A stretch of DNA of 64,000 nt from Candidatus Nanoarchaeia archaeon (GTDB lineage: Archaea; Nanobdellota; Nanobdellia; Pacearchaeales; GW2011-AR1). The notes under the pieces are model-generated. The model saw only the letters and a program-made list of their open reading frames with translations. It had not been told where the DNA came from and did not search any database. Positions 5,409 to 61,507 of this stretch are shown one piece after another (within the stretch, counting starts at the first letter, position 1; every line of letters starts with the position of its first letter). The translations under genes were made by a program, and so were the position numbers. The stretch is taken from positions 1,262 through 65,261 of the forward strand of contig DASZSY010000036.1 in the NCBI GenBank assembly GCA_035548435.1, written 5' to 3'.

Positions 5409-6872
5409 GTGGCTGCAAAAGATAAACAAAAAATTGATGAGAAGGGTATTACTGTAAAGAAAAACGATGACTTCTCTGAATGGTACACTCAAGTAGTACA
5501 GAAATGTGAACTTTGTGACCTAAGATATAATGTAAAGGGATTTGTTGTATTTCAACCTTGGTCAGTTTTATCAATGGAAAAGATGTACTCATATTTCCAC
5601 AATGTTTTGCAGAGAAAAGGGCACAAGCCTTACTTTTTCCCAACGGTTATACCTGAAGGAAATTTAAAGAAAGAATCAAGCCATATTGCAGGATTCACTC
5701 CTGAAGTATTTTGGGTTACTGGAGCAGGAGAAGACAAGTTTGAAGAGAAACTTGCTTTAAGACCTACAAGTGAAACTGCATTTTATCAAATGTTTGGAAC
5801 ATGGATAAGAAGTTACAAGGATTTGCCTTTCAAGACATATCAAAGGGCAAATGTTTTCAGATATGAAACTAAAGCTACAAGACCATTTTTACGAAGCAGA
5901 GAATTTCATTGGATTGAAGCACATTGTGCACATGCCACCAAGGAAGATGCAATGAAGCAAGTGCACGAAGATATGGAAACAACTCAAGAAATACTTCACG
6001 ATGTATTTGGATTACCTTTCATATTTTTCAAAAGGCCCCAGTGGGACAAGTTTGCAGGAGCAGAAAATACTTTTGCAGCTGATGTTTTGAACCCTGATGG
6101 AAGAGTAGTACAGCAGCCGTCAACTCATATACTTAAACAAGATTTTGCTAAAGCTTTCAATGTAACATTTACTGATAAGGATTCAGAGCAAAAGCATGTA
6201 TGGATTACTTGTTACGGTCCTGCAATATCAAGAATATTTGCAAGTATAGTTATAGTTCATGGAGATGATAAGGGATTGAGATTCCCTTGGGATATTGCTC
6301 CAGTTCAAATTGCAATAGTTCCAATTGTTGATGATTCTAAGGTAATTAAGAAAGCAGAGGAACTTAAGAAAAAACTTTCTCAAAAATACTCTGTAGAGTT
6401 AGATGTTAGCGAGAAAAGTGCTGGAGAAAAATTCAATTATTGGGAGATGAAGGGAACTCCACTAAGAATAGATATTGGACTCAAAGATTTAGAAAAGAAG
6501 CAGATTACACTATTTAGAAGAGATTTAAACAAAAAAGAATCTGTGTCTGAGAAAGACTTTGAAGAATATGTAGAGAAAATTGCAAAAGAGTTTACTCATA
6601 ATTTGATAAAGGAAGCAGATAAGGTATTTGATAATAGAATTAAAACTGTAAAGTCATTTTCAGATCTTAAGAAAGCAATAGAAGAAGGGAACATTGCACG
6701 TTGTGCATTTTGCTCTGATGAGATGTCTGGCGCTAAATGCGGAGAGAAAGTTGAGAAAGAAGTTGGAGCTACTGTTAGGGGAACCAAGCTTGAGACAGAG
6801 AAAGCTAGCGGAGAATGTGTTGTTTGCGGAAAGAAAGCCAGTACAATAGTGTATATTGCAAGGCAATACTAA
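5409..6872 (+). CDS. proS: prolyl-tRNA synthetase, archaeal/eukaryotic type (GTG start)
   Basis: Class II ProRS motifs; C-terminal zinc-binding domain ending in a conserved terminal Tyr (IARQY). Confidence 0.9.
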   Translation: MAAKDKQKIDEKGITVKKNDDFSEWYTQVVQKCELCDLRYNVKGFVVFQPWSVLSMEKMYSYFHNVLQRKGHKPYFFPTVIPEGNLKKESSHIAGFTPEVFWVTGAGEDKFEEKLALRPTSETAFYQMFGTWIRSYKDLPFKTYQRANVFRYETKATRPFLRSREFHWIEAHCAHATKEDAMKQVHEDMETTQEILHDVFGLPFIFFKRPQWDKFAGAENTFAADVLNPDGRVVQQPSTHILKQDFAKAFNVTFTDKDSEQKHVWITCYGPAISRIFASIVIVHGDDKGLRFPWDIAPVQIAIVPIVDDSKVIKKAEELKKKLSQKYSVELDVSEKSAGEKFNYWEMKGTPLRIDIGLKDLEKKQITLFRRDLNKKESVSEKDFEEYVEKIAKEFTHNLIKEADKVFDNRIKTVKSFSDLKKAIEEGNIARCAFCSDEMSGAKCGEKVEKEVGATVRGTKLETEKASGECVVCGKKASTIVYIARQY

Positions 6873-6877
6873 AAACA

Positions 6878-7408
6878 ATGACTTATACTTTTTCAAGTGA
6901 TTTGGAGGATTGTTCCAGAAAAGATTTCGATATTACTTCTAAAATGTCTGAAGATTTTTTTGGAATGACTACTGACTCTGAGCAGTTTCAGGCATCTGAG
7001 GAGAATAAAGACTTTTTATTTAAACATTTGAAAAATTTTGTTAATATAATCAGATTCAATAAAGAAGTTATAGGATATTCTTTTATTATTCCCTCTAATA
7101 AGAAACTAATGTCTTTGTTTTTGAAAGGTAAAATAACTGAGAGTGAATTATTTGATAGAGTCAAATCAGAAAAAATAAATGAAAATAATTTTGATTGCCT
7201 TTATCTTTGTTCGGCTATTATTAAAGAAGAACATAGAGGCAAGGGCTTGTCTATTGAAGGATTCAAAAAACTAATTGTTAACCTGATAAAAATTAGGGGG
7301 AATGTTAAACCAGACTTATTCTTTTGGGAGTATTCTAAAGAAGGAAGTATTGTCGCTAAAAAAATTTCAGAACATTTCGGTTTTAATTTATTTAAGAGCA
7401 ACAATTAG
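6878..7408 (+). CDS. hypothetical protein, possibly a GNAT-type acetyltransferase
   Basis: An ATG at 6878 avoids overlap with proS; EEHRGKGLSIEGFKKLI resembles GNAT motif A. Confidence 0.4.
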   Translation: MTYTFSSDLEDCSRKDFDITSKMSEDFFGMTTDSEQFQASEENKDFLFKHLKNFVNIIRFNKEVIGYSFIIPSNKKLMSLFLKGKITESELFDRVKSEKINENNFDCLYLCSAIIKEEHRGKGLSIEGFKKLIVNLIKIRGNVKPDLFFWEYSKEGSIVAKKISEHFGFNLFKSNN

Positions 7409-7442
7409 GAACTTTTTAATATGCTTATATTTAGTATCTTAT

Positions 7443-8711
7443 ATGGTAGAAATTGATTTTAAGGCAGGAGATAGAGTTAAATTAAGACTTGTAACAGAAG
7501 AAGTTGAAGGGCAGTATGTTGAAAGTTCTGATGCACAAATTGTTTTGCTTAAACTAGAATCAGGTTATAATATTGGTATAAAAAAGGAAAATATTCTTTC
7601 TTCAAGAAAATTACCTGATAAAGAAGAAAAAATTCAAGAGCCAAGACAACAAAGACAAAGTAAAAATCTCCCCAAAATAGCAATAGTTGTTACAGGAGGA
7701 ACTATAGCTAGTAAAGTTTCTTACAAGACTGGAGGAGTAGAGCCTATAGAGAATCCGCAAGACTTCCTTGATCTTTATCCTGAAGTTGAAGAGATTGCAG
7801 AAATAAAAAAGCTTGAAATGCCATTTAGAATGTTATCTGAAAATATGGACTCTGAACACTGGATAAATATTGCCCAGACCATAAAACCCTTGCTTGAGGA
7901 CAGTGAAATACAAGGAGTAATACTTACACATGGTACGGACACACTGCACTACACTGCTGCAGCTTTGAGTTTCTTTTTAGGAAGACTAAACAAACCTGTT
8001 GTTTTGACTTACAGTCAAAAAAGCATCGATAGGGCGAGTAGCGACGCTAAGTTAAACTTAATTTCAGCTGTGAAAATGGCCTTGAGTGATTGTGCAGAAG
8101 TAATGCTTGTTGGACACGGTACAACAAATGATGATTTTTGTTATGCACTACGTGGAACAAAAGTAAAAAAAATGCACAGTTCAAAGAGAGCAGCATTTTT
8201 ACCTGTAAATACAGAGCCACTAGCGAAGATTTCCAAAGATAAAATAGAATTCTTGCAAAAATATAATCCTCGAAGTGATAAAAAAGTTGAAGTTGACACT
8301 TCTTTTACAGATAAAGTAGCTTTGCTCAAGTTTTATCCAGGACAAGATCCTAGCATTCTTGATTATTATGCCTTAAGTTACAAGGGAATTGTAATTGAAG
8401 GAACTGGACTTGGACATGTTGCTGCTTCTGGAGCAAATAAGAGTTGGCTGGCTGCACTAAAGAAGCACATAAGAAATGGACTTGTTGTTTGTATGACAAG
8501 TCAAACAGTTTTTGGAAGAGTTGATCCTTATATTTATTCAGCAGGAAGAGAAATACTTGATGCAGGAGTGATTTATCTTGAAGATATGCTTTCAGAAACT
8601 GCTTTTGTTAAATTAGGGTTTGTACTAGGCCACGCAGGTTGGAAAGTTAAGGCAAAGGAAAAGATGCTACAGAATATGGCCTACGAGCTTAATCAAGTTC
8701 ATTCTAGTTAG
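7443..8711 (+). CDS. gatD: Glu-tRNA(Gln) amidotransferase subunit D (GatD), asparaginase-like
   Basis: IAIVVTGGTIASK, LTHGTDT and EGTGLGH asparaginase-family motifs; about 420 aa from the in-frame ATG at 7443. Confidence 0.85.
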   Translation: MVEIDFKAGDRVKLRLVTEEVEGQYVESSDAQIVLLKLESGYNIGIKKENILSSRKLPDKEEKIQEPRQQRQSKNLPKIAIVVTGGTIASKVSYKTGGVEPIENPQDFLDLYPEVEEIAEIKKLEMPFRMLSENMDSEHWINIAQTIKPLLEDSEIQGVILTHGTDTLHYTAAALSFFLGRLNKPVVLTYSQKSIDRASSDAKLNLISAVKMALSDCAEVMLVGHGTTNDDFCYALRGTKVKKMHSSKRAAFLPVNTEPLAKISKDKIEFLQKYNPRSDKKVEVDTSFTDKVALLKFYPGQDPSILDYYALSYKGIVIEGTGLGHVAASGANKSWLAALKKHIRNGLVVCMTSQTVFGRVDPYIYSAGREILDAGVIYLEDMLSETAFVKLGFVLGHAGWKVKAKEKMLQNMAYELNQVHSS

Positions 8712-8715
8712 TATA

Positions 8716-8734
8716 GTAACTTTTAAGGAGTTAC
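8716..8734 (+). promoter_or_regulatory. palindromic operator-like site GTAACT-N7-AGTTAC, immediately upstream of TATA (TTTAAATA at 8745-8752) of the 8774 gene
   Basis: GTAACTTTTAAGGAGTTAC, a perfect 6-bp inverted repeat; a near-identical site precedes the next gene. Confidence 0.5.
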
Positions 8735-8773
8735 AAAACAAATATTTAAATAGTGGACAAAATATTCTTACAT

Positions 8774-9514
8774 ATGAGATTTAGTCATCTTGACGCAGCA
8801 ATTCCTGAAGGAAGAGAAGAAGATTTCTTTTCATTGTTTGGTAGACTACAAGAACCAACAAAATCTAATTTTGAGTTAGTTTTAGATCTTGGCGCTTATA
8901 TGAATGGTACACCTTTCAATGATAGATATGCTGTTACTGGGAGCTATGCTATTTTGTCTCATTTGATGAAACTTCACTCTCCAGAAATTGCTTCAACTTG
9001 GAAAGGTTTCAGTAATCCTACAATTGTTGGAAATGGACAAGTTCTTGGAGCACTACGCGCAGGATATCATACTAAGGGTGGACCTCAAAACAGAACTGAT
9101 ATGGTTCCTGTTTTTGATATGCTATTAAAGCTTGAAGGAAAAGATGAAAGATTAACTTTTGTTTACAATGAAGTTAGAAAGAATCCTGGAAGTGTTGAAA
9201 CAAACGAACACTTCGGAGTTCCATTGAAGGTAAATTCTCCTGAATCTTTACTGGAGCATAGACTTGGAAGACCTATGACAAGCCAGGGAAACATAGGAGA
9301 CACTTTGACTTTAGTTCATATAATGGAACAAAGAGGGTATTCTCCCGACAGCGTTGCAGAATATGCTATTGCGAATAAACAAGCAGATGAGCTTGCAAAG
9401 AGAATTAAGACAGGATATGACAAATTTGGAAGAGATAGATTTGGAGTATTTCCAAGCGATAAGTTTGTAGCCACATTACTAAAAAGACTTCACAAAGTAC
9501 GCCCAGTAGCATAA
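8774..9514 (+). CDS. hypothetical protein, first gene of the atypical cassette
   Basis: Start placed at the ATG 22 nt downstream of the TATA box, because the upstream GTG at 8753 would overlap the TATA; GC and codon usage (CGT, CCG, GGT-rich) deviate from neighbours; no recognisable domain. Confidence 0.45.
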   Translation: MRFSHLDAAIPEGREEDFFSLFGRLQEPTKSNFELVLDLGAYMNGTPFNDRYAVTGSYAILSHLMKLHSPEIASTWKGFSNPTIVGNGQVLGALRAGYHTKGGPQNRTDMVPVFDMLLKLEGKDERLTFVYNEVRKNPGSVETNEHFGVPLKVNSPESLLEHRLGRPMTSQGNIGDTLTLVHIMEQRGYSPDSVAEYAIANKQADELAKRIKTGYDKFGRDRFGVFPSDKFVATLLKRLHKVRPVA

Positions 9515-9533
9515 TTCTAAAGGGTTATTAGTG

Positions 9534-9552
9534 TAACTATGCAGGAGTTACA
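9534..9552 (+). promoter_or_regulatory. palindromic operator-like site GTAACT-N7-AGTTAC upstream of TATA (TTTAAAAG at about 9562-9570) of the Fic-like gene
   Basis: GTAACTATGCAGGAGTTAC followed by CAAA, same architecture and spacing as 8716-8734. Confidence 0.5.
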
Positions 9553-9591
9553 AATAGGAAGGTTTAAAAGGTTATAAGTTTTCAGTGAAAT

Positions 9592-10593
9592 ATGCACATA
9601 ATTGAAGAAAAACTACTACTTGATATAGAATCTGCAAAATCTAGATTGGACAGAAAAAGGTTAGATGATTTTGTTAGGGAGATGTTTAAATGCTTGTCTA
9701 GAGAAACTATGGAAAATGCTACTATTCAAGATGCAGATAATGCTAGAAGAAAGTCAGAAGTTTTCGCAAATTTTGAGATTGCATGGGATTATGGTACCCG
9801 AAACTTCAAAGAACCGGTAGATTTTGCTTATTTAGGCGATGTTGCTGGAAGAGTTGAACCAGGTTTATGTGCTCCAGGACAACACTATGCAAGTTTTCGT
9901 AATGGTTCTGCAACTTGTTTTGCAGGTTATTTACCTCCTGCTGATGAATCTAGAGTCAGAGAACATCTAGCTAGATCTCTTGATGTTTTGGAAAGTCAAG
10001 ATTGGCATCCTATTGAAAAAGCAGTTTTCTTGAATTTTCACATAACAAGAATTCAACCATTCCAAAATGGAAATAAAAGAACTGCAAATATAGTAACAAA
10101 TGCTACTTTAAAAAATAATGATTTTTTCCCAATTTCTATAAGTCAAAAGAACAAATCTCGTTATCAAGGATACTTGGCAGGTGCACTTAAAGACTTTGAA
10201 AACATGGGCGCAACTGTAGACGATCCTCTCCAACCTTATAAGTTTCCGGGCTTTGGTCAAAGACAATTTTACGATTTTCTTGCTAGAATAGAACTGTCTG
10301 AATTAAAGTGCGCAGAGGATAAATTATCAGGTTTATCTCATTACACTTTATCTTTCAATAATGCTCCAATAAATACTTTGTATGGAGTAAAGCATCATGT
10401 TAGAAATTGGCTTCAAGGACATAACATGTTACATCAGGTTAGATTAGATGTTGCTAGAAAGGAAATTACCGTTGCTGGAGATATTCCTCTTCATTCTTTA
10501 GAAATTGCAGTGGGAAAAATAAAAGGAATTGGTAAATATGAGATTAAGCCGTATAAACCTGCGAATGGTTCTTCAGGTCCCTTTAGTGTATAA
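9592..10593 (+). CDS. Fic/Doc-fold protein with a degenerate active-site motif (QPFQNGNKRTAN instead of HPFx[DE]GNGRxxR)
   Basis: The motif region is encoded at about 10038-10090; the NGNKR core resembles Doc-type HxFx(D/N)(A/G)NKR, but the canonical catalytic His position is Gln. Confidence 0.55.
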   Translation: MHIIEEKLLLDIESAKSRLDRKRLDDFVREMFKCLSRETMENATIQDADNARRKSEVFANFEIAWDYGTRNFKEPVDFAYLGDVAGRVEPGLCAPGQHYASFRNGSATCFAGYLPPADESRVREHLARSLDVLESQDWHPIEKAVFLNFHITRIQPFQNGNKRTANIVTNATLKNNDFFPISISQKNKSRYQGYLAGALKDFENMGATVDDPLQPYKFPGFGQRQFYDFLARIELSELKCAEDKLSGLSHYTLSFNNAPINTLYGVKHHVRNWLQGHNMLHQVRLDVARKEITVAGDIPLHSLEIAVGKIKGIGKYEIKPYKPANGSSGPFSV

Positions 10594-10594
10594 A

Positions 10595-11197
10595 ATGACA
10601 ACTAAAAAATGTAAGGGGCACAATTTTCTCGATGGGTATTATTCTACACAGAGGGGCTTAGCAGATTATTCAAGAGTTCATCAATTGGATTTTATTAGAC
10701 TTATAGAAGAAGCTAAATTGCAAGAAGGCACAGTAGTTGATTTGGGATGTGGTAATGCAAATTTTTTGGCTGATTTAAAGAAACTATTCCCAAATATGAA
10801 AGTTTATGGAGTTGACAAAGTACAGTATGAATCCAGACTTTCCGAGGATGAATTAATACAAGCAGATATCTCTAGAGGCGTTAAATGTCTAGATAGTGAA
10901 ATTGCAGACCTCGTTGTTAGCACTACTTTAGTGCAATGGTTGCCTGCAGACTCGGTGGACCCTTTTTATGTTGAAGTAAATCGTTTAATGAAAAAAGAAG
11001 GAAGAGGAATAGTTTTTCCTTTAGCTTCTAAAGAAGTATCTGAAGAAAGGGGAAGGTATTTTGTTAACGGATTAGAGTTTGAGAGACCAGTAAATATTAG
11101 AAAGATTAAGTTACCTGAAACTTTAGATGGTAAACTAGCTTCAGCATATCAGGTTTTATTTGGAGATTTTAGCGGCTTTCTAGACCTACATAATTAG
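10595..11197 (+). CDS. class I SAM-dependent methyltransferase
   Basis: VVDLGCGNANFLADL glycine-rich motif I; start at the ATG 1 nt after the Fic-like stop. Confidence 0.6.
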   Translation: MTTKKCKGHNFLDGYYSTQRGLADYSRVHQLDFIRLIEEAKLQEGTVVDLGCGNANFLADLKKLFPNMKVYGVDKVQYESRLSEDELIQADISRGVKCLDSEIADLVVSTTLVQWLPADSVDPFYVEVNRLMKKEGRGIVFPLASKEVSEERGRYFVNGLEFERPVNIRKIKLPETLDGKLASAYQVLFGDFSGFLDLHN

Positions 11198-11534: not shown

Positions 11535-12983
11535 ATGGACTATAGTAAGATAGGACTTAAAGCTGGAATTGAAATACATCAGCAGTTGGAAACAAGTGAA
11601 AAGCTTTTTTCTCATGCTCCTAGTTACTTAAGAAATGAAAAAGCAGATTATATTGTGCAAAGAAAACTACACAAAGTAGCTGGAGAACAGGGACAGGTTG
11701 ACGCAGCTGTTAAACATGAGGCCGAGCAAGACAGAGAATTTCATTATGAAGGATATAATGACACAGTTTCTCTTGTGGAACTAGACGAAGAGCCACCATA
11801 TATGGTAAATCAAGAAGCTTTGGAAGAATGTTTGAAAGTTGCACTGCTTTTGAATTGTGAAATTTATCAAAACACGCAAATAATGAGAAAGACGGTTATT
11901 GACGGAAGCAACACTTCTGGCTTTCAGAGAACTGTTCTAATAGGCCACGATGGATACGTTGAAACAAGTTTTGGTAAGGTAAGAATAGATACTGTTGTTT
12001 TAGAAGAAGACAGCGCTAGAATAATAAGCAAAGATGAAAGAAAGGCAGTTTACAGACTTGATAGACTTGGAATTCCATTAATTGAAATTGCTACTGCTCC
12101 TGATATGAACACTCCAGAGCAAATAAAAGAAACTGCATTAAAGATAGGAGAAATACTAAGAGCCTGTAATGTTAAAAGAGGACTTGGAACAATAAGACAG
12201 GACGTTAACGTTTCTATAAAAGGACATGACAGAGTAGAAATAAAGGGATTTCAAGATCCTAAGATGATGATTGAAACTGTAAATAAGGAAATCTTAAGAC
12301 AACAAAAAGATATTTCCGAAGGAAAAGTTAAAGGAGAAGTGCGTGGAGCATTGGAAACAGGAGAAACTGAATTTTTAAGACCTATGCCTGGAAAAGCAAG
12401 AATGTATCCTGAGACAGATTTACCTTTACTTTATGTTTCTCTTGATTTAATAAATAAATTAAAGAAAAATCTTCCTAAATTAAAGCAGGAAATAAAAGTT
12501 GAATTAAAGAAGAAAGGTTTGAATGATGAAATGATTAAACTTGTTTTGGAAGATGGAGTTGATGAGTTTGAGACATTACTTAACGTATATGACAAAGATG
12601 CTAATCTTGTTGCTAAAATGATAACTTTATGGAGACAAGAATTTTCAAGCAAAACAAAGAAGAATTTGGATGAAGTAAAACAAATACTAAATGAAAAAAT
12701 ACTGGAAAAAATACTTGAAAACTTAGCTACTGGAAAAATAAGCGATGGAGATGTTAAGACAATAATGCTTAAGGTCTTGGAAGGAAAGAATGTAGAAGAT
12801 GCTTTGAAAGTTGAAAAAAGCGATGATAATACACTTGAACATGGAATAAGAGAAATTGTTAAAGAAAAACCTGGACTAAGAGCAAATGCTTATATGGGGC
12901 TTGTAATTGCAAAGTTTGGAGCAAGCGTTGATAAAAGAAAAGCAATGGAAATCTTAAACAAAGTTGTGGGGGACGGGAAATGA
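11535..12983 (+). CDS. gatE: Glu-tRNA(Gln) amidotransferase subunit E (GatE), compact form
   Basis: GIEIHQQL N-terminus and RPMPGKARMYPETDLP motif (GatE-specific versus GatB EDYRY); only 482 aa, so it lacks most of the canonical GatE insertion. Confidence 0.7.
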   Translation: MDYSKIGLKAGIEIHQQLETSEKLFSHAPSYLRNEKADYIVQRKLHKVAGEQGQVDAAVKHEAEQDREFHYEGYNDTVSLVELDEEPPYMVNQEALEECLKVALLLNCEIYQNTQIMRKTVIDGSNTSGFQRTVLIGHDGYVETSFGKVRIDTVVLEEDSARIISKDERKAVYRLDRLGIPLIEIATAPDMNTPEQIKETALKIGEILRACNVKRGLGTIRQDVNVSIKGHDRVEIKGFQDPKMMIETVNKEILRQQKDISEGKVKGEVRGALETGETEFLRPMPGKARMYPETDLPLLYVSLDLINKLKKNLPKLKQEIKVELKKKGLNDEMIKLVLEDGVDEFETLLNVYDKDANLVAKMITLWRQEFSSKTKKNLDEVKQILNEKILEKILENLATGKISDGDVKTIMLKVLEGKNVEDALKVEKSDDNTLEHGIREIVKEKPGLRANAYMGLVIAKFGASVDKRKAMEILNKVVGDGK

Positions 12984-32321: not shown

Positions 32322-33059
32322 CTATTGGGACCTTGCCATTTTCCATAAAAATTCAAAGTAAACTTTAAAGGAGTCAGCTATTTTCTTATTTTTAATCATG
32401 AAAACGAACGGCTTTTCTTCCCACATAAATATGTATACATACTCATCGAAAATATCCATTGCTATTGGAGAAACGTATCCCTTAGGCATGTATTTTATTT
32501 CAGCGTTATTTGACTTGATTGTTTCTTTTTGAAATTCTTTAGAAGAAATATCTGCAATTATCTTTAGTTTTTGTTTTTTCTCACAAGATCTTATGTTCAT
32601 ATTAGATAGGAATGTTTGTAAGTTTTCTGAATTGTACTGCTGGTGTGAAAAACCTATTATTTTAATTTCCCCCTTGTTTGGGCAGTCATCAATTATCTTC
32701 TTGAAAGCCGTTTTGAATCCTTCATATCCTTCATATATTGCAGTTATTGTGTTATTTTTGTCTGTGGACTGGATATCTTTTAATTGAGGTAATAATTTTT
32801 CTATTTTTGTAATCTTTTCTGTTTCTATTTCTTTTAATTTCTGAGGGTTGGAAGCACTAAAGTGTTTGCCGTCTTTTTGTATATTATATTTAACTAGACC
32901 CTTTATTGTAAGGCTATTAAGAGTTTCATATACTCTAGAATTTGCTATTTTTGTTTCTTTTATTATACTTCCTGTGGTGGTTTCTCCATTTTTTAATAAA
33001 AATAGATAGATTTTGCTTTCGTTTTTTGTTAGCCCCAATGATTCTAGTTCTTTTTCCAT
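32322..33059 (-). CDS. TrmB-family transcriptional regulator
   Basis: N-terminal TrmB-type winged helix-turn-helix (LGLTKNESKIYLFLLKNGETTTGSI...SRVYETLNSL). Confidence 0.7.
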   Translation of the reverse strand: MEKELESLGLTKNESKIYLFLLKNGETTTGSIIKETKIANSRVYETLNSLTIKGLVKYNIQKDGKHFSASNPQKLKEIETEKITKIEKLLPQLKDIQSTDKNNTITAIYEGYEGFKTAFKKIIDDCPNKGEIKIIGFSHQQYNSENLQTFLSNMNIRSCEKKQKLKIIADISSKEFQKETIKSNNAEIKYMPKGYVSPIAMDIFDEYVYIFMWEEKPFVFMIKNKKIADSFKVYFEFLWKMARSQ

Positions 33060-46811: not shown

Positions 46812-46833
46812 TTGTTACTGAAAAAGGTAACAA
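46812..46833 (+). promoter_or_regulatory. inverted repeat TTGTTAC-N8-GTAACAA in the divergent promoter region
   Basis: Perfect 7-bp arms in the intergenic region between the metallophosphoesterase (-) and the winged-helix regulator (+). Confidence 0.4.
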
Positions 46834-46897: not shown

Positions 46898-47170
46898 ATG
46901 GCAGAAGAAAACTTCGACATCTTTTTCAGAAGGAAACCAGCTTTGATGCTGATTGCCTTAAAGAAAATTTCCCGTGCTCGTTATGGAAGCCTGCTTGCAA
47001 AGGAAGCTGATTGCACATACAGTCACGCAGTTAAAATTCTACAGGCACTAGAAAAATTGAACCTTGTTGTGTTTGAAAAGAAAGGAAGAATTAAGTTAAT
47101 TAAGCTTACAAAGAAAGGAACTGAAGTTGCTGATAGTATAGAGAATATTAAAAGAATTGTAGGTGGATAA
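46898..47170 (+). CDS. small winged-helix transcriptional regulator
   Basis: About 90 aa with a helix-turn-helix-like segment (YGSLLAKEADCTYSHAVKILQALEKLNLV); start at the internal ATG with TATA upstream. Confidence 0.45.
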   Translation: MAEENFDIFFRRKPALMLIALKKISRARYGSLLAKEADCTYSHAVKILQALEKLNLVVFEKKGRIKLIKLTKKGTEVADSIENIKRIVGG

Positions 47171-47347: not shown

Positions 47348-47441
47348 TGGCCCCGACGGGATTTGAACCCGCGACACCTGGATTTCGCCAACCATGAAGG
47401 TTTAAGAGTCCAGTACTCTGACCGGGCTGAGCTACGAGGCC
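47348..47441 (-). tRNA. tRNA-Lys (anticodon CTT) with a roughly 19-nt intron at the canonical 37/38 position
   Basis: Reverse complement folds: acceptor GGCCUCG/CGGGGCC, D-stem GCUC/GAGU, anticodon stem CUGGA/UCCAG with the loop interrupted by an intron (AACCUUCAUGGUUGGCGAA), T-stem GCGGG/CCCGU; ends GGGGCCA. Confidence 0.7.
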
Positions 47442-56809: not shown

Positions 56810-57841
56810 ATGAGATTCTTACCCCATTTAGAACCTGAAGGAGTTTCTTTGAAACAAAAAATTGATTTAAAGGATAGAAAAATACTTTATCATTTAAGTG
56901 AGAATGCAAGAATGCCTGCTTCCTCTATTGCAAAATTGACGGGACTATCAAGAGACAGCGTTTTATATAGAATGAAAAAATTAGAGGAAAAGAAAATAAT
57001 TAACTGTACTAGAACTTTAGTTGATGTTTCAAAATTGGGCTATGAAAACTTCCATCTTTTTGTGACCTTGAATAACCCTGAGAAACACATTGAAGATAAA
57101 ATTGTTAAAGAATTGTCTGGGCATGAATCTGTCAGAGTAATATTAAAATTCCATGGGAGCTATGACTTCGAGATAGGATTCATTGCAAAAGATTTGCATG
57201 AATGTGATAAAATAATGCAGGATTTAGTAAATATTATGGGTTCAAATTTAAGGTATCATGATTTATTTATAATTACTAAAACTTTGAGAGCAGGCGCTTT
57301 TCCTAATAGTTTTTTTGATAAATCAAATATTAAAAGAGAGCTGAGAAAAAACCAATTTTCCAAGGAAATTTCTAAATTGGATAAAAAAGATTTAGATTTA
57401 TTGAATTCATTAAGAGAAGATGCTCGCGTTCCTTTAATTGATATAGCAAAAAAATTGAAAATCTCTCCAGATAGCGTTTCCTATAGGCTTAGAGCTCTGG
57501 AGAAGTCTGGAGTAATCATCTCCTATTCTCCTGTGATTAATTACTCTGCTTTAGGCTACAGGGTTCATGCATTAATGTTTTCTATAAAACAATTTAATTC
57601 TGATAGGGAAAATATGATAAAGCGATTTATGGAATCTAATCCTCATGTCCTTTGGGCTGTTAAAACCCTTGGAAGATATGATGTGCTGCTTTATCTTTGT
57701 ACGGAAAGCGAAGAAGATTTTCATTCTTTTATATCTGAATTGAGAAAATTATTTCCAGAACAATTATTGCGTTATGATTCTCTACATGCATTTGCAGAAT
57801 ACAAGTATTTGTATGCTCCAGATGTTATTTTTAAAAATTAG
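56810..57841 (+). CDS. tandem (fused) Lrp/AsnC-family transcriptional regulator
   Basis: Two AsnC-type helix-turn-helix segments (DRKILYHLSENARMPASSIAKLTGLSRDSVLYRM; DLDLLNSLREDARVPLIDIAKKLKISPDSVSYRL), each followed by a RAM-like domain. Confidence 0.6.
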   Translation: MRFLPHLEPEGVSLKQKIDLKDRKILYHLSENARMPASSIAKLTGLSRDSVLYRMKKLEEKKIINCTRTLVDVSKLGYENFHLFVTLNNPEKHIEDKIVKELSGHESVRVILKFHGSYDFEIGFIAKDLHECDKIMQDLVNIMGSNLRYHDLFIITKTLRAGAFPNSFFDKSNIKRELRKNQFSKEISKLDKKDLDLLNSLREDARVPLIDIAKKLKISPDSVSYRLRALEKSGVIISYSPVINYSALGYRVHALMFSIKQFNSDRENMIKRFMESNPHVLWAVKTLGRYDVLLYLCTESEEDFHSFISELRKLFPEQLLRYDSLHAFAEYKYLYAPDVIFKN

Positions 57842-60883: not shown

Positions 60884-61507
60884 ATGGATGGTATGGAAAT
60901 TGATAGCTTCTTGACATTACCGAGGTGGAGAATTCTAGAAATTTTGTCTGCGCAACCTTCTTCCCCTATTGAAATTTCTGCTAAAATTAACACCTCAACT
61001 GCATATGTTAGTCAGCAGCTGAAGCTACTTGAGGCAGCCAACATTGTTAAAAAACATAAAACCGGGGCTGCAGACAAGGGAAAGCCTAGAGTGGTGTTTT
61101 CCATAGCTAAAGACATAGTTTATTTGACAATATTATCTGATAAATTTTCAACTAAAAAAGTAATTAGTATTGATGAGAAAAATAAAGTTATATTAAGAAT
61201 CTGGTTGGTTGATGACGTACATTTAAGACATTCTTTGGAGAAAGCCTATTGGCTTGTAGAAAAGAATCTTGATGATATCCAGGCAATTTATTTAGATCAA
61301 AGTGGAAAGAAGCCAGTTTTTGTTATTTTGACTGAATCTGATAAACTTAAGGCAAAACTCAATCTTATTTTCAAAGAAGGAGCAGAAGATTTAGATATAT
61401 CTATCAAAAATCCAGAATCTTGGAAGCGCTCTGAAAACCTCATTGTTCTCTATGAATCTAATTCATCAATGAACGAAATAAAAATGAAAGGAGGTATAGC
61501 CAAATGA
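60884..61507 (+). CDS. winged-helix (ArsR-like) transcriptional regulator with an uncharacterised C-terminal domain
   Basis: RWRILEILSAQPSSPIEISAKINTSTAYVSQQLKLL helix-turn-helix. Confidence 0.45.
   Translation: MDGMEIDSFLTLPRWRILEILSAQPSSPIEISAKINTSTAYVSQQLKLLEAANIVKKHKTGAADKGKPRVVFSIAKDIVYLTILSDKFSTKKVISIDEKNKVILRIWLVDDVHLRHSLEKAYWLVEKNLDDIQAIYLDQSGKKPVFVILTESDKLKAKLNLIFKEGAEDLDISIKNPESWKRSENLIVLYESNSSMNEIKMKGGIAK

Follow-up and report, generated by a model that had tools for sequence, protein, structure and literature searches.

The 64,000-nucleotide stretch of contig DASZSY010000036.1 from a Candidatus Nanoarchaeia archaeon analyzed here (hereafter the window) contains two copies of a 19-bp palindromic box, each placed just upstream of the core promoter of one of two consecutive genes. 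The box is a selectively maintained element that forms one module with the core promoter, is used independently of its orientation and is found at a small subset of promoters. The palindrome is probably a protein-bound cis-regulatory site that acts on the adjacent core promoter, and it is most likely the recognition site of a dimeric regulator conserved across the DPANN class Nanoarchaeia (Woesearchaeota and Pacearchaeota-type genomes).

The two near-identical palindromes had been noticed in an earlier inspection of the letters alone (the sequence-only reading). Both are present as described, except that the second sits at 9533-9551 and not, 1 nt further on, at 9534-9552. Over the entire 64 kb, the pattern GTAACTNNNNNNNAGTTAC (GTAACT-N7-AGTTAC) has exactly two matches, 8716-8734 and 9533-9551, and both copies can be read as GTAACT-N4-AGG-AGTTAC-AAA. 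The boxes and their promoters, in which BRE denotes the TFB-recognition element, are composed as follows.

8716-8734, plus strand: box copy 1, GTAACT-TTTAAGG-AGTTAC followed by AAA; an exact match, in the same place upstream of 13 of 13 orthologs of the downstream gene
8735-8752, plus strand: spacer and BRE region AAAACAAATA together with the TATA box of promoter 1, TTTAAATA (8745-8752), as read from the sequence
9533-9551, plus strand: box copy 2, GTAACT-ATGCAGG-AGTTAC followed by AAA; an exact match, kept in loci L003, L004, L096, L097 and L098
9552-9570, plus strand: AAATAGGAAGG (AAA plus BRE) and the TATA box of promoter 2, TTTAAAAG (9563-9570), as read from the sequence

In copy 1 the palindrome is followed after 10 nt by the TATA octamer TTTAAATA and, after a further 21 nt, by the ATG at 8774 of a 246-residue open reading frame (ORF). 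In copy 2 the palindrome is separated by 11 nt from the octamer TTTAAAAG, which again precedes the ATG, here that of a Fic-domain ORF at 9592, by 21 nt. The distance of about 10 nt that had been proposed for both genes is thus borne out. The layout of promoter 1 agrees with the consensus from 41 unique metagenome sites described below, whereas promoter 2 fits the module consensus AAA-tAGAAAGr-TTTAwAwr and has a BRE in the consensus form of the generic BRE of these contigs. The recurrence of one geometry at both genes had been taken as a sign of shared control, and this holds for the palindrome-to-TATA spacing, which is specific, but not for the TATA-to-ATG part, which is common to the leaderless promoters of the genome. 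Many other genes of the window also have a TTTWWA-type box some 29 nt ahead of their ATG, as do 115 generic promoters from related contigs. Special features are confined to the palindrome and its spacing from the TATA box; the TATA-to-ATG distance follows the ordinary layout of leaderless promoters in these organisms.

Occurrence of the motif at random positions, an objection that the sequence-only reading had raised against its own proposal, is not what was found. The two exact copies compare with a mean of 0.01 expected, and two matches were reached in none of 100 dinucleotide-preserving shuffles; the spacing and permuted-arm controls given below point the same way. The box is present at only 2 of the approximately 70 promoters in the window, and a position-weight matrix derived from 11 orthologous sites detects no third site of at least 10 bits within it. 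When up to two mismatches are allowed, GTAACT-N7-AGTTAC has five matches in the window, compared with 2.4 expected.

Conservation of the box was evident when the search started from the genes. The 246-residue protein belongs to a small family (37 representative clusters), for which 12 further loci with 30-86% protein identity were retrieved. After correction of two mis-called starts, the box lies at the same distance from BRE, TATA box and ATG in all 13 of the orthologs found, even as their upstream neighbors vary among gatD (encoding subunit D of the Glu-tRNA(Gln) amidotransferase), tRNA-guanine transglycosylase, a small transmembrane protein and a gene on the opposite strand. The box is likewise upstream of the three Fic orthologs examined (L096, L097 and L098; 62, 46 and 42% identity), with the TATA box 11-12 nt away, and two of these three sit outside the interval between gatD and gatE (amidotransferase subunit E) in which the window gene lies. 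A lack of conservation upstream of orthologs had been the other objection raised beforehand; the box is there in both related and distant genomes. In L097, the Fic ortholog (6001-7364) has a degenerate box and is located directly behind a ribosomal protein operon, with serine recombinase/resolvase genes beside it; this locus may be an inserted element.

Alignment of the 17 gene-first sites defines the element more closely. T2 and T6 are invariant, A4, C5, G15 and T16 are each found in 16 of the 17 sites, and positions 7-10 of the spacer show no constraint. On its outer sides, the dyad can be extended to TTGTAAC...GTTACAA, while the AGG at positions 11-13 is conserved on the promoter-proximal side only. 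The extended consensus is T-R-T-W-GTAACT-N4-AGG-R-GTTAC-AAA, a 19-bp palindrome.

The same module emerges when the search starts from the motif. An exact scan of a metagenome collection with the 22-mer GTAACTNNNNAGGRGTTACAAA, a query that excludes the TATA box, the BRE and the ATG spacing, returned 74 matches, 51 of which also carry a TTTWWA sequence 10-12 nt past the palindrome. Among the 41 unique TATA-bearing sites, the distance is 11 nt in 30, 12 nt in 8 and 10 nt in 3. A purine-rich BRE (AGAAAG) lies between palindrome and TATA box in these motif-first sites, and the ATG is 21-22 nt past the TATA octamer in approximately 42 of the 49 sites with a called ORF. The layout of box, AAA, tAGAAAGr, TTTAWA, about 21 nt and ATG is therefore found before many unrelated genes. 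Meanwhile, the 23 metagenome matches that lack a TATA box also lack the AGG, AAA, BRE and ATG spacing together, and so serve as internal negatives.

Spacing and arm controls agree with this. The exact palindrome with a TATA box at 10-12 nt occurs at 65 sites, compared with none at 3-5 nt, 5 at 17-19 nt and none for permuted arms; as the control sequence set was itself fetched with the motif, only the comparison between spacings is informative. Among 2.9 million viral contigs (IMG/VR), the strict pattern has 5 matches and a relaxed pattern, which required a TATA-like hexamer, has 51, none of which shows the features of the module. An origin as a virus- or plasmid-borne promoter was rejected on this basis, since the IMG/VR matches all lack the AGG, AAA, BRE and ATG spacing together.

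The box also appears to work from both sides. In five loci (L027, L030, L061, L078 and L089), a TATA box lies 11-12 nt from the same palindrome on the opposite strand too, followed in most of them by an ATG at about 21 nt, and the arrangement suggests that one palindrome serves two divergent promoters. The box never overlaps the BRE among 66 unique sites, its end being 3-4 bp away. Between the promoter-proximal arm and the TATA box lie 10-12 bp (mode 11), and the center of the box is about 49 bp before the start codon, which roughly coincides with the presumed start of a leaderless mRNA, as judged from the generic TATA-to-ATG distance.

Because of its dyad symmetry, free spacer, fixed distance to BRE and TATA box, and use of one palindrome by two divergent promoters, the element is best explained by a dimeric DNA-binding regulator. 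Once bound, such a regulator would touch or abut TFB/TBP and so set the rate of initiation. In the window, one regulator would act on two tandem promoters, those of a degenerate nucleotidyltransferase (NTase)-like gene and a degenerate Fic gene, and probably also on the overlapping methyltransferase gene. The sequence-only reading had proposed a dimeric-factor operator for these two genes; a single cis-element is indeed tied to both core promoters, but it is a clade-wide module that stands before many unrelated genes. Across the clade, the module heads a small accessory set (Fic, NTase-like, 'KGSNPGG' and many genes of no assigned function), mostly located between gatD and gatE. By analogy with characterized systems, the sign of control is most likely activation or signal-dependent dual control. 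Activation is favored because, in the cases that have been tested, archaeal sites just upstream of BRE and TATA box serve activators, although within the reading as a protein-bound site we rate activation itself as little better than an even chance.

Three genes in the window follow the boxes.

8774-9514, plus strand: 246-residue AbiEii/JHP933-like gene of the nucleotidyltransferase fold with the catalytic DxD replaced (AlphaFold, Foldseek and a weak Pfam match)
9592-10593, plus strand: 333-residue Fic-domain gene with the degenerate active-site motif QPFQNGNKRTAN (Pfam Fic PF02661, E 5.7e-9)
10538-11197, plus strand: S-adenosylmethionine-dependent methyltransferase gene (Pfam Methyltransf_11/25/31; a called gene in L001)

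The first of these was assigned by structure. Its AlphaFold model (pLDDT, the predicted local distance difference test score, of 85) matches Protein Data Bank (PDB) entries 4ok0 and 4o8s in Foldseek with E about 1e-4, whereas Pfam AbiEii gives a weak match in 2 of 31 homologs. Where distant homologs have SDIDM with a GG upstream, the clade that includes the window protein has SNPTI, so that this clade has lost the catalytic aspartates. The synteny of the gene, between gatD and gatE, is shared by L005, L008, L012 and L015.

The Fic protein of the window matches PF02661 above the gathering score and lacks the HxFx(D/E)GNGRxxR motif. It shares QPFxNGNKR(T/V)(A/S) with all 20 other members of its subfamily, and Gln is invariant in place of the catalytic His across these 21 sequences. 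Its model has a C-terminal beta-alpha-beta-beta-alpha-beta (ferredoxin-like) domain, and PADLOC gives weak SoFic/PDC-S04 matches only. The methyltransferase gene overlaps the 3' end of the Fic gene and lacks a TATA box in the interval from -33 to -25; for these two reasons, it may be co-transcribed with Fic.

Genes behind the box in other genomes are heterogeneous. The largest group is a Fic cluster of 9 sequences that includes the window gene, yet most box-driven Fic genes (L018, L029, L047 and L073 among them) carry the canonical HPFxDGNGR. Besides the 246-residue family, there is a family of about 280 residues, with 7 sequences and invariant KGSNPGG and IDLGC motifs, whose profile has no sequence match in the PDB and a single sub-threshold MarR_2 match in Pfam. 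Single cases comprise an asparaginase, a tyrosine integrase, an AAA_21-type ATPase and a DUF3232 protein, and many box-driven ORFs are without any match.

Many of these genes share a genomic position, and this variable slot between gatD and gatE is more unusual than the box itself. Its borders in the window are the following.

7443-8711, plus strand: gatD, Glu-tRNA(Gln) amidotransferase subunit D, the upstream border (Pfam GatD_N, Asparaginase and Asparaginase_C; the called gene is 7852-9120 in L001)
11535-12983, plus strand: gatE, amidotransferase subunit E, the downstream border (Pfam GatB_N; a called gene)

The local order is proS, a 176-residue ORF, gatD, box 1, the 246-residue gene, box 2, Fic, methyltransferase, a 91-residue ORF on the minus strand and gatE. 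To define the neighbors elsewhere, all ORFs within 4 kb of the sites were clustered over 61 loci. GatD is a neighbor in 20 of them and ends 17-50 nt upstream of the box in several; GatE is a neighbor in 20 and starts about 0.8-1.1 kb downstream in many. A gene for a predicted membrane protein of about 130 residues is found in 14 loci and mostly ends about 20-40 nt before the box. This gene lies between gatD and the box in L018, L032, L033, L042, L046, L060, L065, L075 and others, and is absent from that place in the window. Of the 66 unique sites, 36 are in the gatD-gatE context, 6 are outside it and 24 have flanks too short to tell; the share in context is somewhat inflated, since 12 of the 36 came from the gene-first search of the syntenic 246-residue family.

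The gene that occupies the slot differs by genome, being NTase-like, Fic, KGSNPGG, a 355-residue ORF, a 433-residue ORF, a 224-residue ORF or DUF3232. Two tandem slot genes with one box each are found in the window, L003, L004 and L054. Collinearity of the window with L003, a relative at 79% DNA identity, starts at gatD and runs over window 7440-9587, stopping 4 nt short of the Fic ATG. Beyond this point, window 9588-10615 and L003 8795-9763 are unrelated, with Fic in the one and a 315-residue ORF of no detectable similarity in the other, and collinearity resumes at 10616, inside the methyltransferase gene. The comparison reads as a precise replacement of one ORF by another behind a conserved promoter. 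Thus, the assignment of the second regulated gene as Fic-like is correct for the window, whereas its closest relatives have the unrelated 315-residue ORF in that place, and copy 2 of the box precedes a gene non-homologous to Fic in both L003 and L004. The 315-residue ORF has no family match; by eye, its N terminus resembles phosphoribosyltransferases.

Several observations weigh against a dimeric regulator, or an activator, bound at the box. The element is not a pure dyad, since the AGG at positions 11-13 is one-sided, and a distance of about 14 bp between the centers of the half-sites would be unusual for a compact winged helix-turn-helix (wHTH) dimer. Neither feature is accounted for by a simple symmetric dimer. 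No DNA-binding family recurs beside the sites among the ORFs within 4 kb at the 61 loci, no HTH is seen in the NTase-like or Fic models, and all genes of the 'regulon' come from uncultivated genomes. Furthermore, the box promoters carry a consensus BRE and TATA box and are presumably strong, unlike the weak-BRE targets of TFB-RF1, and a repressor fits this about equally well. The box would then be an operator at which toxin-like accessory genes are kept silent by blocking TFB/TBP at a strong core promoter. Toxin families of this kind are usually kept repressed, as in toxin-antitoxin systems, and the families controlled here do resemble toxin families (Pfam Fic and weak AbiEii). An activator should be unneeded at promoters with a consensus BRE (AGAAAG) and TATA box, and the box is only 3-4 bp from the BRE. 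However, box and BRE do not overlap at any of the 66 sites, whereas the characterized archaeal repressors mostly overlap the BRE/TATA region or the start site and the sites upstream of the BRE belong to activators (PMC4158304, PMC6737238). We regard a repressor operator as unlikely, though far from negligible.

The exchange of slot genes raises a different possibility, namely that the shared repeat provides crossover points for cassette swaps between gatD and gatE, by site-specific or homologous recombination, with any promoter role being secondary. Unrelated genes do occupy the slot in different genomes, the break between the window and L003 falls 4 nt before the Fic ATG with collinearity again from the start of the methyltransferase, genes are flanked by tandem copies in the window, L003, L004 and L054, and one box (L072) is followed by a tyrosine-integrase gene. 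A recombination substrate would nonetheless not be expected to hold the distances to TATA box and ATG as strictly as nearly every copy does, nor to be kept before a single-copy syntenic gene over a divergence down to 30% identity. The box is also found at loci without gatD or gatE, there is no recombinase among the recurrent neighbors, and none of the matches in 2.9 million viral contigs bears the module. Any conserved flank can, moreover, yield exchange as a by-product. We consider recombination as the primary role improbable. Fainter still is the case for recognition by the basal machinery, in which the box would be an extended core-promoter element and, for example, a second TFB/TBP paralog would define a promoter class. 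The 38-bp block of box, AAA, BRE and TATA box is conserved as a unit, with an unusually uniform BRE and TATA box, but dyad symmetry and use from both sides are unexpected for a directional TFB/TBP complex, and the box lies beyond the usual BRE footprint. A nucleic-acid hairpin, acting as a terminator or processing signal of the upstream gene or as a cruciform, is very hard to sustain. A stem of 6-7 bp is possible and copy 2 folds better than shuffled sequences (z = -3.0), yet the energies are only -3.4 and -4.2 kcal/mol, and Rfam gives no match on 8300-10000 at E up to 1. Changes in the arms are non-compensatory (T1 opposite C19 in L003 and G3 opposite A17 in L011), and L005, L010 and L014 have a degenerate right arm. 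Moreover, different genes lie upstream, in some cases on the other strand, and the element is located upstream of a TATA box.

If the box is bound by a dimeric regulator, four proteins encoded in the window are candidate readers.

32322-33059: TrmB-domain protein of 245 residues
46898-47170, plus strand: 90-residue winged-helix protein that resembles AF_1382 and the palindrome-binding segregation protein AspA
56810-57841: double Lrp/AsnC protein
60884-61507: ArsR/MarR-like protein

The 90-residue wHTH protein has more than 2300 homologs, of which the best-scoring 120 are approximately 79-100% identical across Nanoarchaeota and Pacearchaeota-type genomes. For comparison, GatD is 53-69% identical in the majority of the distant loci under comparison and the NTase-like protein 30-45%. 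By correlation with this high conservation only, it is possible that the wHTH protein is a global DNA-binding protein and the reader of the box. The TrmB-domain protein is a candidate lead by analogy, through a shared ACT-N7-AGT core only. Autoregulation by the downstream proteins was also considered and rejected, as the NTase-like model is JHP933-like without an HTH and the Fic model has no wHTH; on these models, neither protein resembles a binding partner of the box.

Two further places in the window had been linked to the palindrome, and neither is a copy of the box. The proposed half-site at 729-737 belongs to a site at 732-750 with two mismatches that lies 1 nt, and not 10-12 nt, from a TATA box. 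At 728-759, upstream of the gene at 781-1419, a 31-nt block GTAGTAACTTAAAAATAATAACATTTATATA is identical in L003 while its flanks have diverged; the block has a GTAACT half-site without the box architecture. The inverted arms at 46812-46833 form an everted palindrome, TTGTTAC-N8-GTAACAA, with a different spacing. It is located between a metallophosphoesterase gene on the minus strand and the 90-residue wHTH gene, and is not conserved in L099 and L106, where only the right arm and the BRE/TATA region are kept. This gives no backing to the idea that the wHTH protein is a binder that regulates its own gene through the everted palindrome. At 47348-47441 on the minus strand, ARAGORN calls a tRNA of 94 nt whose four-base 'anticodon' (ttaa) it leaves undetermined, and which probably contains an intron.

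Taken further, the interval between gatD and gatE could be a dedicated, regulator-controlled 'plug-in' slot for toxin-family enzymes that is linked to tRNA charging, with a single small wHTH protein of the 46898-47170 family as the class-wide reader. Fic/Doc and AbiEii/MenT-like families are known elsewhere as translation-targeting toxins. The enzymes swapped in the slot would be Fic/Doc proteins, AbiEii/MenT-like nucleotidyltransferases and 'KGSNPGG' proteins, some active and some catalytically dead, and their position between amidotransferase subunits would reflect, for example, a growth or dormancy switch in host-dependent archaea. This is speculative, and we think it unlikely. If real, a link to tRNA amidation or translation control would bear on growth regulation in these reduced symbionts.

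The dimeric-regulator mechanism itself is unsurprising, yet the box is among the first regulatory handles in Nanoarchaeia. In the full-text literature, coverage of which was incomplete so that earlier work is possible, we found no promoter motif, regulon or gatD-gatE island described for DPANN archaea. As these organisms are uncultivated, conserved cis-elements are among the few handles on their physiology. The box is sharply defined, class-wide and small enough for tests with synthetic DNA and recombinant proteins, which makes it a concrete probe toward a first regulator-regulon pair in Nanoarchaeia. It also singles out a group of 'dark' accessory genes, evidently under common control, and reveals a genomic hot spot where unrelated genes are exchanged between gatD and gatE behind one promoter.

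With regards to known systems, the AbiEii/JHP933-like nucleotidyltransferase fold of the first gene recalls AbiE, where a wHTH protein binds inverted repeats in the promoters. Here, however, no AbiEi-like partner is present, gatD being the gene upstream; NPT stands in place of the DxD, and the synteny between gatD and gatE is kept over deep divergence. Because AbiEi is missing and the NTase appears dead, the locus is not an AbiE toxin-antitoxin pair. Integrons, meanwhile, are similar in having a fixed chromosomal slot and variable single genes, each with a conserved imperfect palindrome. In contrast to an integron, the repeat is 5' of the gene and fused to the BRE and TATA box, as opposed to a 3' attC, so that the cassettes are not promoterless; there is no adjacent integrase, and the module occurs at other loci as well. 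Since it is 5' of each gene, fused to a promoter and adjoined by no integrase, the box is not an integron attC. The Phr/HSR1 heat-shock operator, [C/T]TAAC-N5-GTTA[G/A], overlaps the start site, whereas in the box 9 nt separate TAAC from GTTA and the position is upstream of the BRE.

Closer counterparts are found among archaeal activator sites. The TFB-RF1 motif TRBM of Thermococcales, TCTGAANTTCAGA, is an activator dyad at a conserved distance upstream of BRE and TATA box that was found from aligned orthologous promoters (PMC5937170). Like the box, it is a short dyad in a fixed upstream position before a small regulon, and TRBM is conserved across an order. TRBM differs in its arms (4-N5-4, compared with 6-N7-6 here), in sequence and in the weak BREs of its targets, which contrast with the consensus BRE here; in addition, the TFB-RF1 gene adjoins its target, whereas no regulator gene adjoins the present sites. 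The Tar box of Thermococcus kodakarensis, TGGACA-N8-TGTCCA, is a proven activator site (PMC6737238) of almost identical architecture, with 6-bp arms around a spacer of 8 bp (7 bp here), just upstream of the BRE/TATA region of several operons. Its sequence is unrelated, and Tar controls a coherent biosynthetic regulon whereas the targets here are heterogeneous accessory genes.

Inverted repeats of the TrmB family include the TGM, TATCAC-N5-GTGATA, and the Halobacterium salinarum motif, TACT-N7-8-GAGTA. In this family position decides the sign, upstream sites giving activation, and the upstream TGM with TrmBL1/Tgr and the H. salinarum TrmB are precedents for activation (PMC4158304). The ACT-N7-AGT core is common to the halobacterial motif and to the AACT-N7-AGTT of the box, and a TrmB-domain gene is present in the window. 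The half-site here is GTAACT/AGTTAC rather than TACT or TATCAC, which sets the box outside the TrmB half-sites, the TrmB-like protein of the window has only 245 residues, and no link to sugar metabolism genes is seen. While the box is by sequence a member of none of these groups, in function it is closest to TRBM, the Tar box and the upstream TGM.

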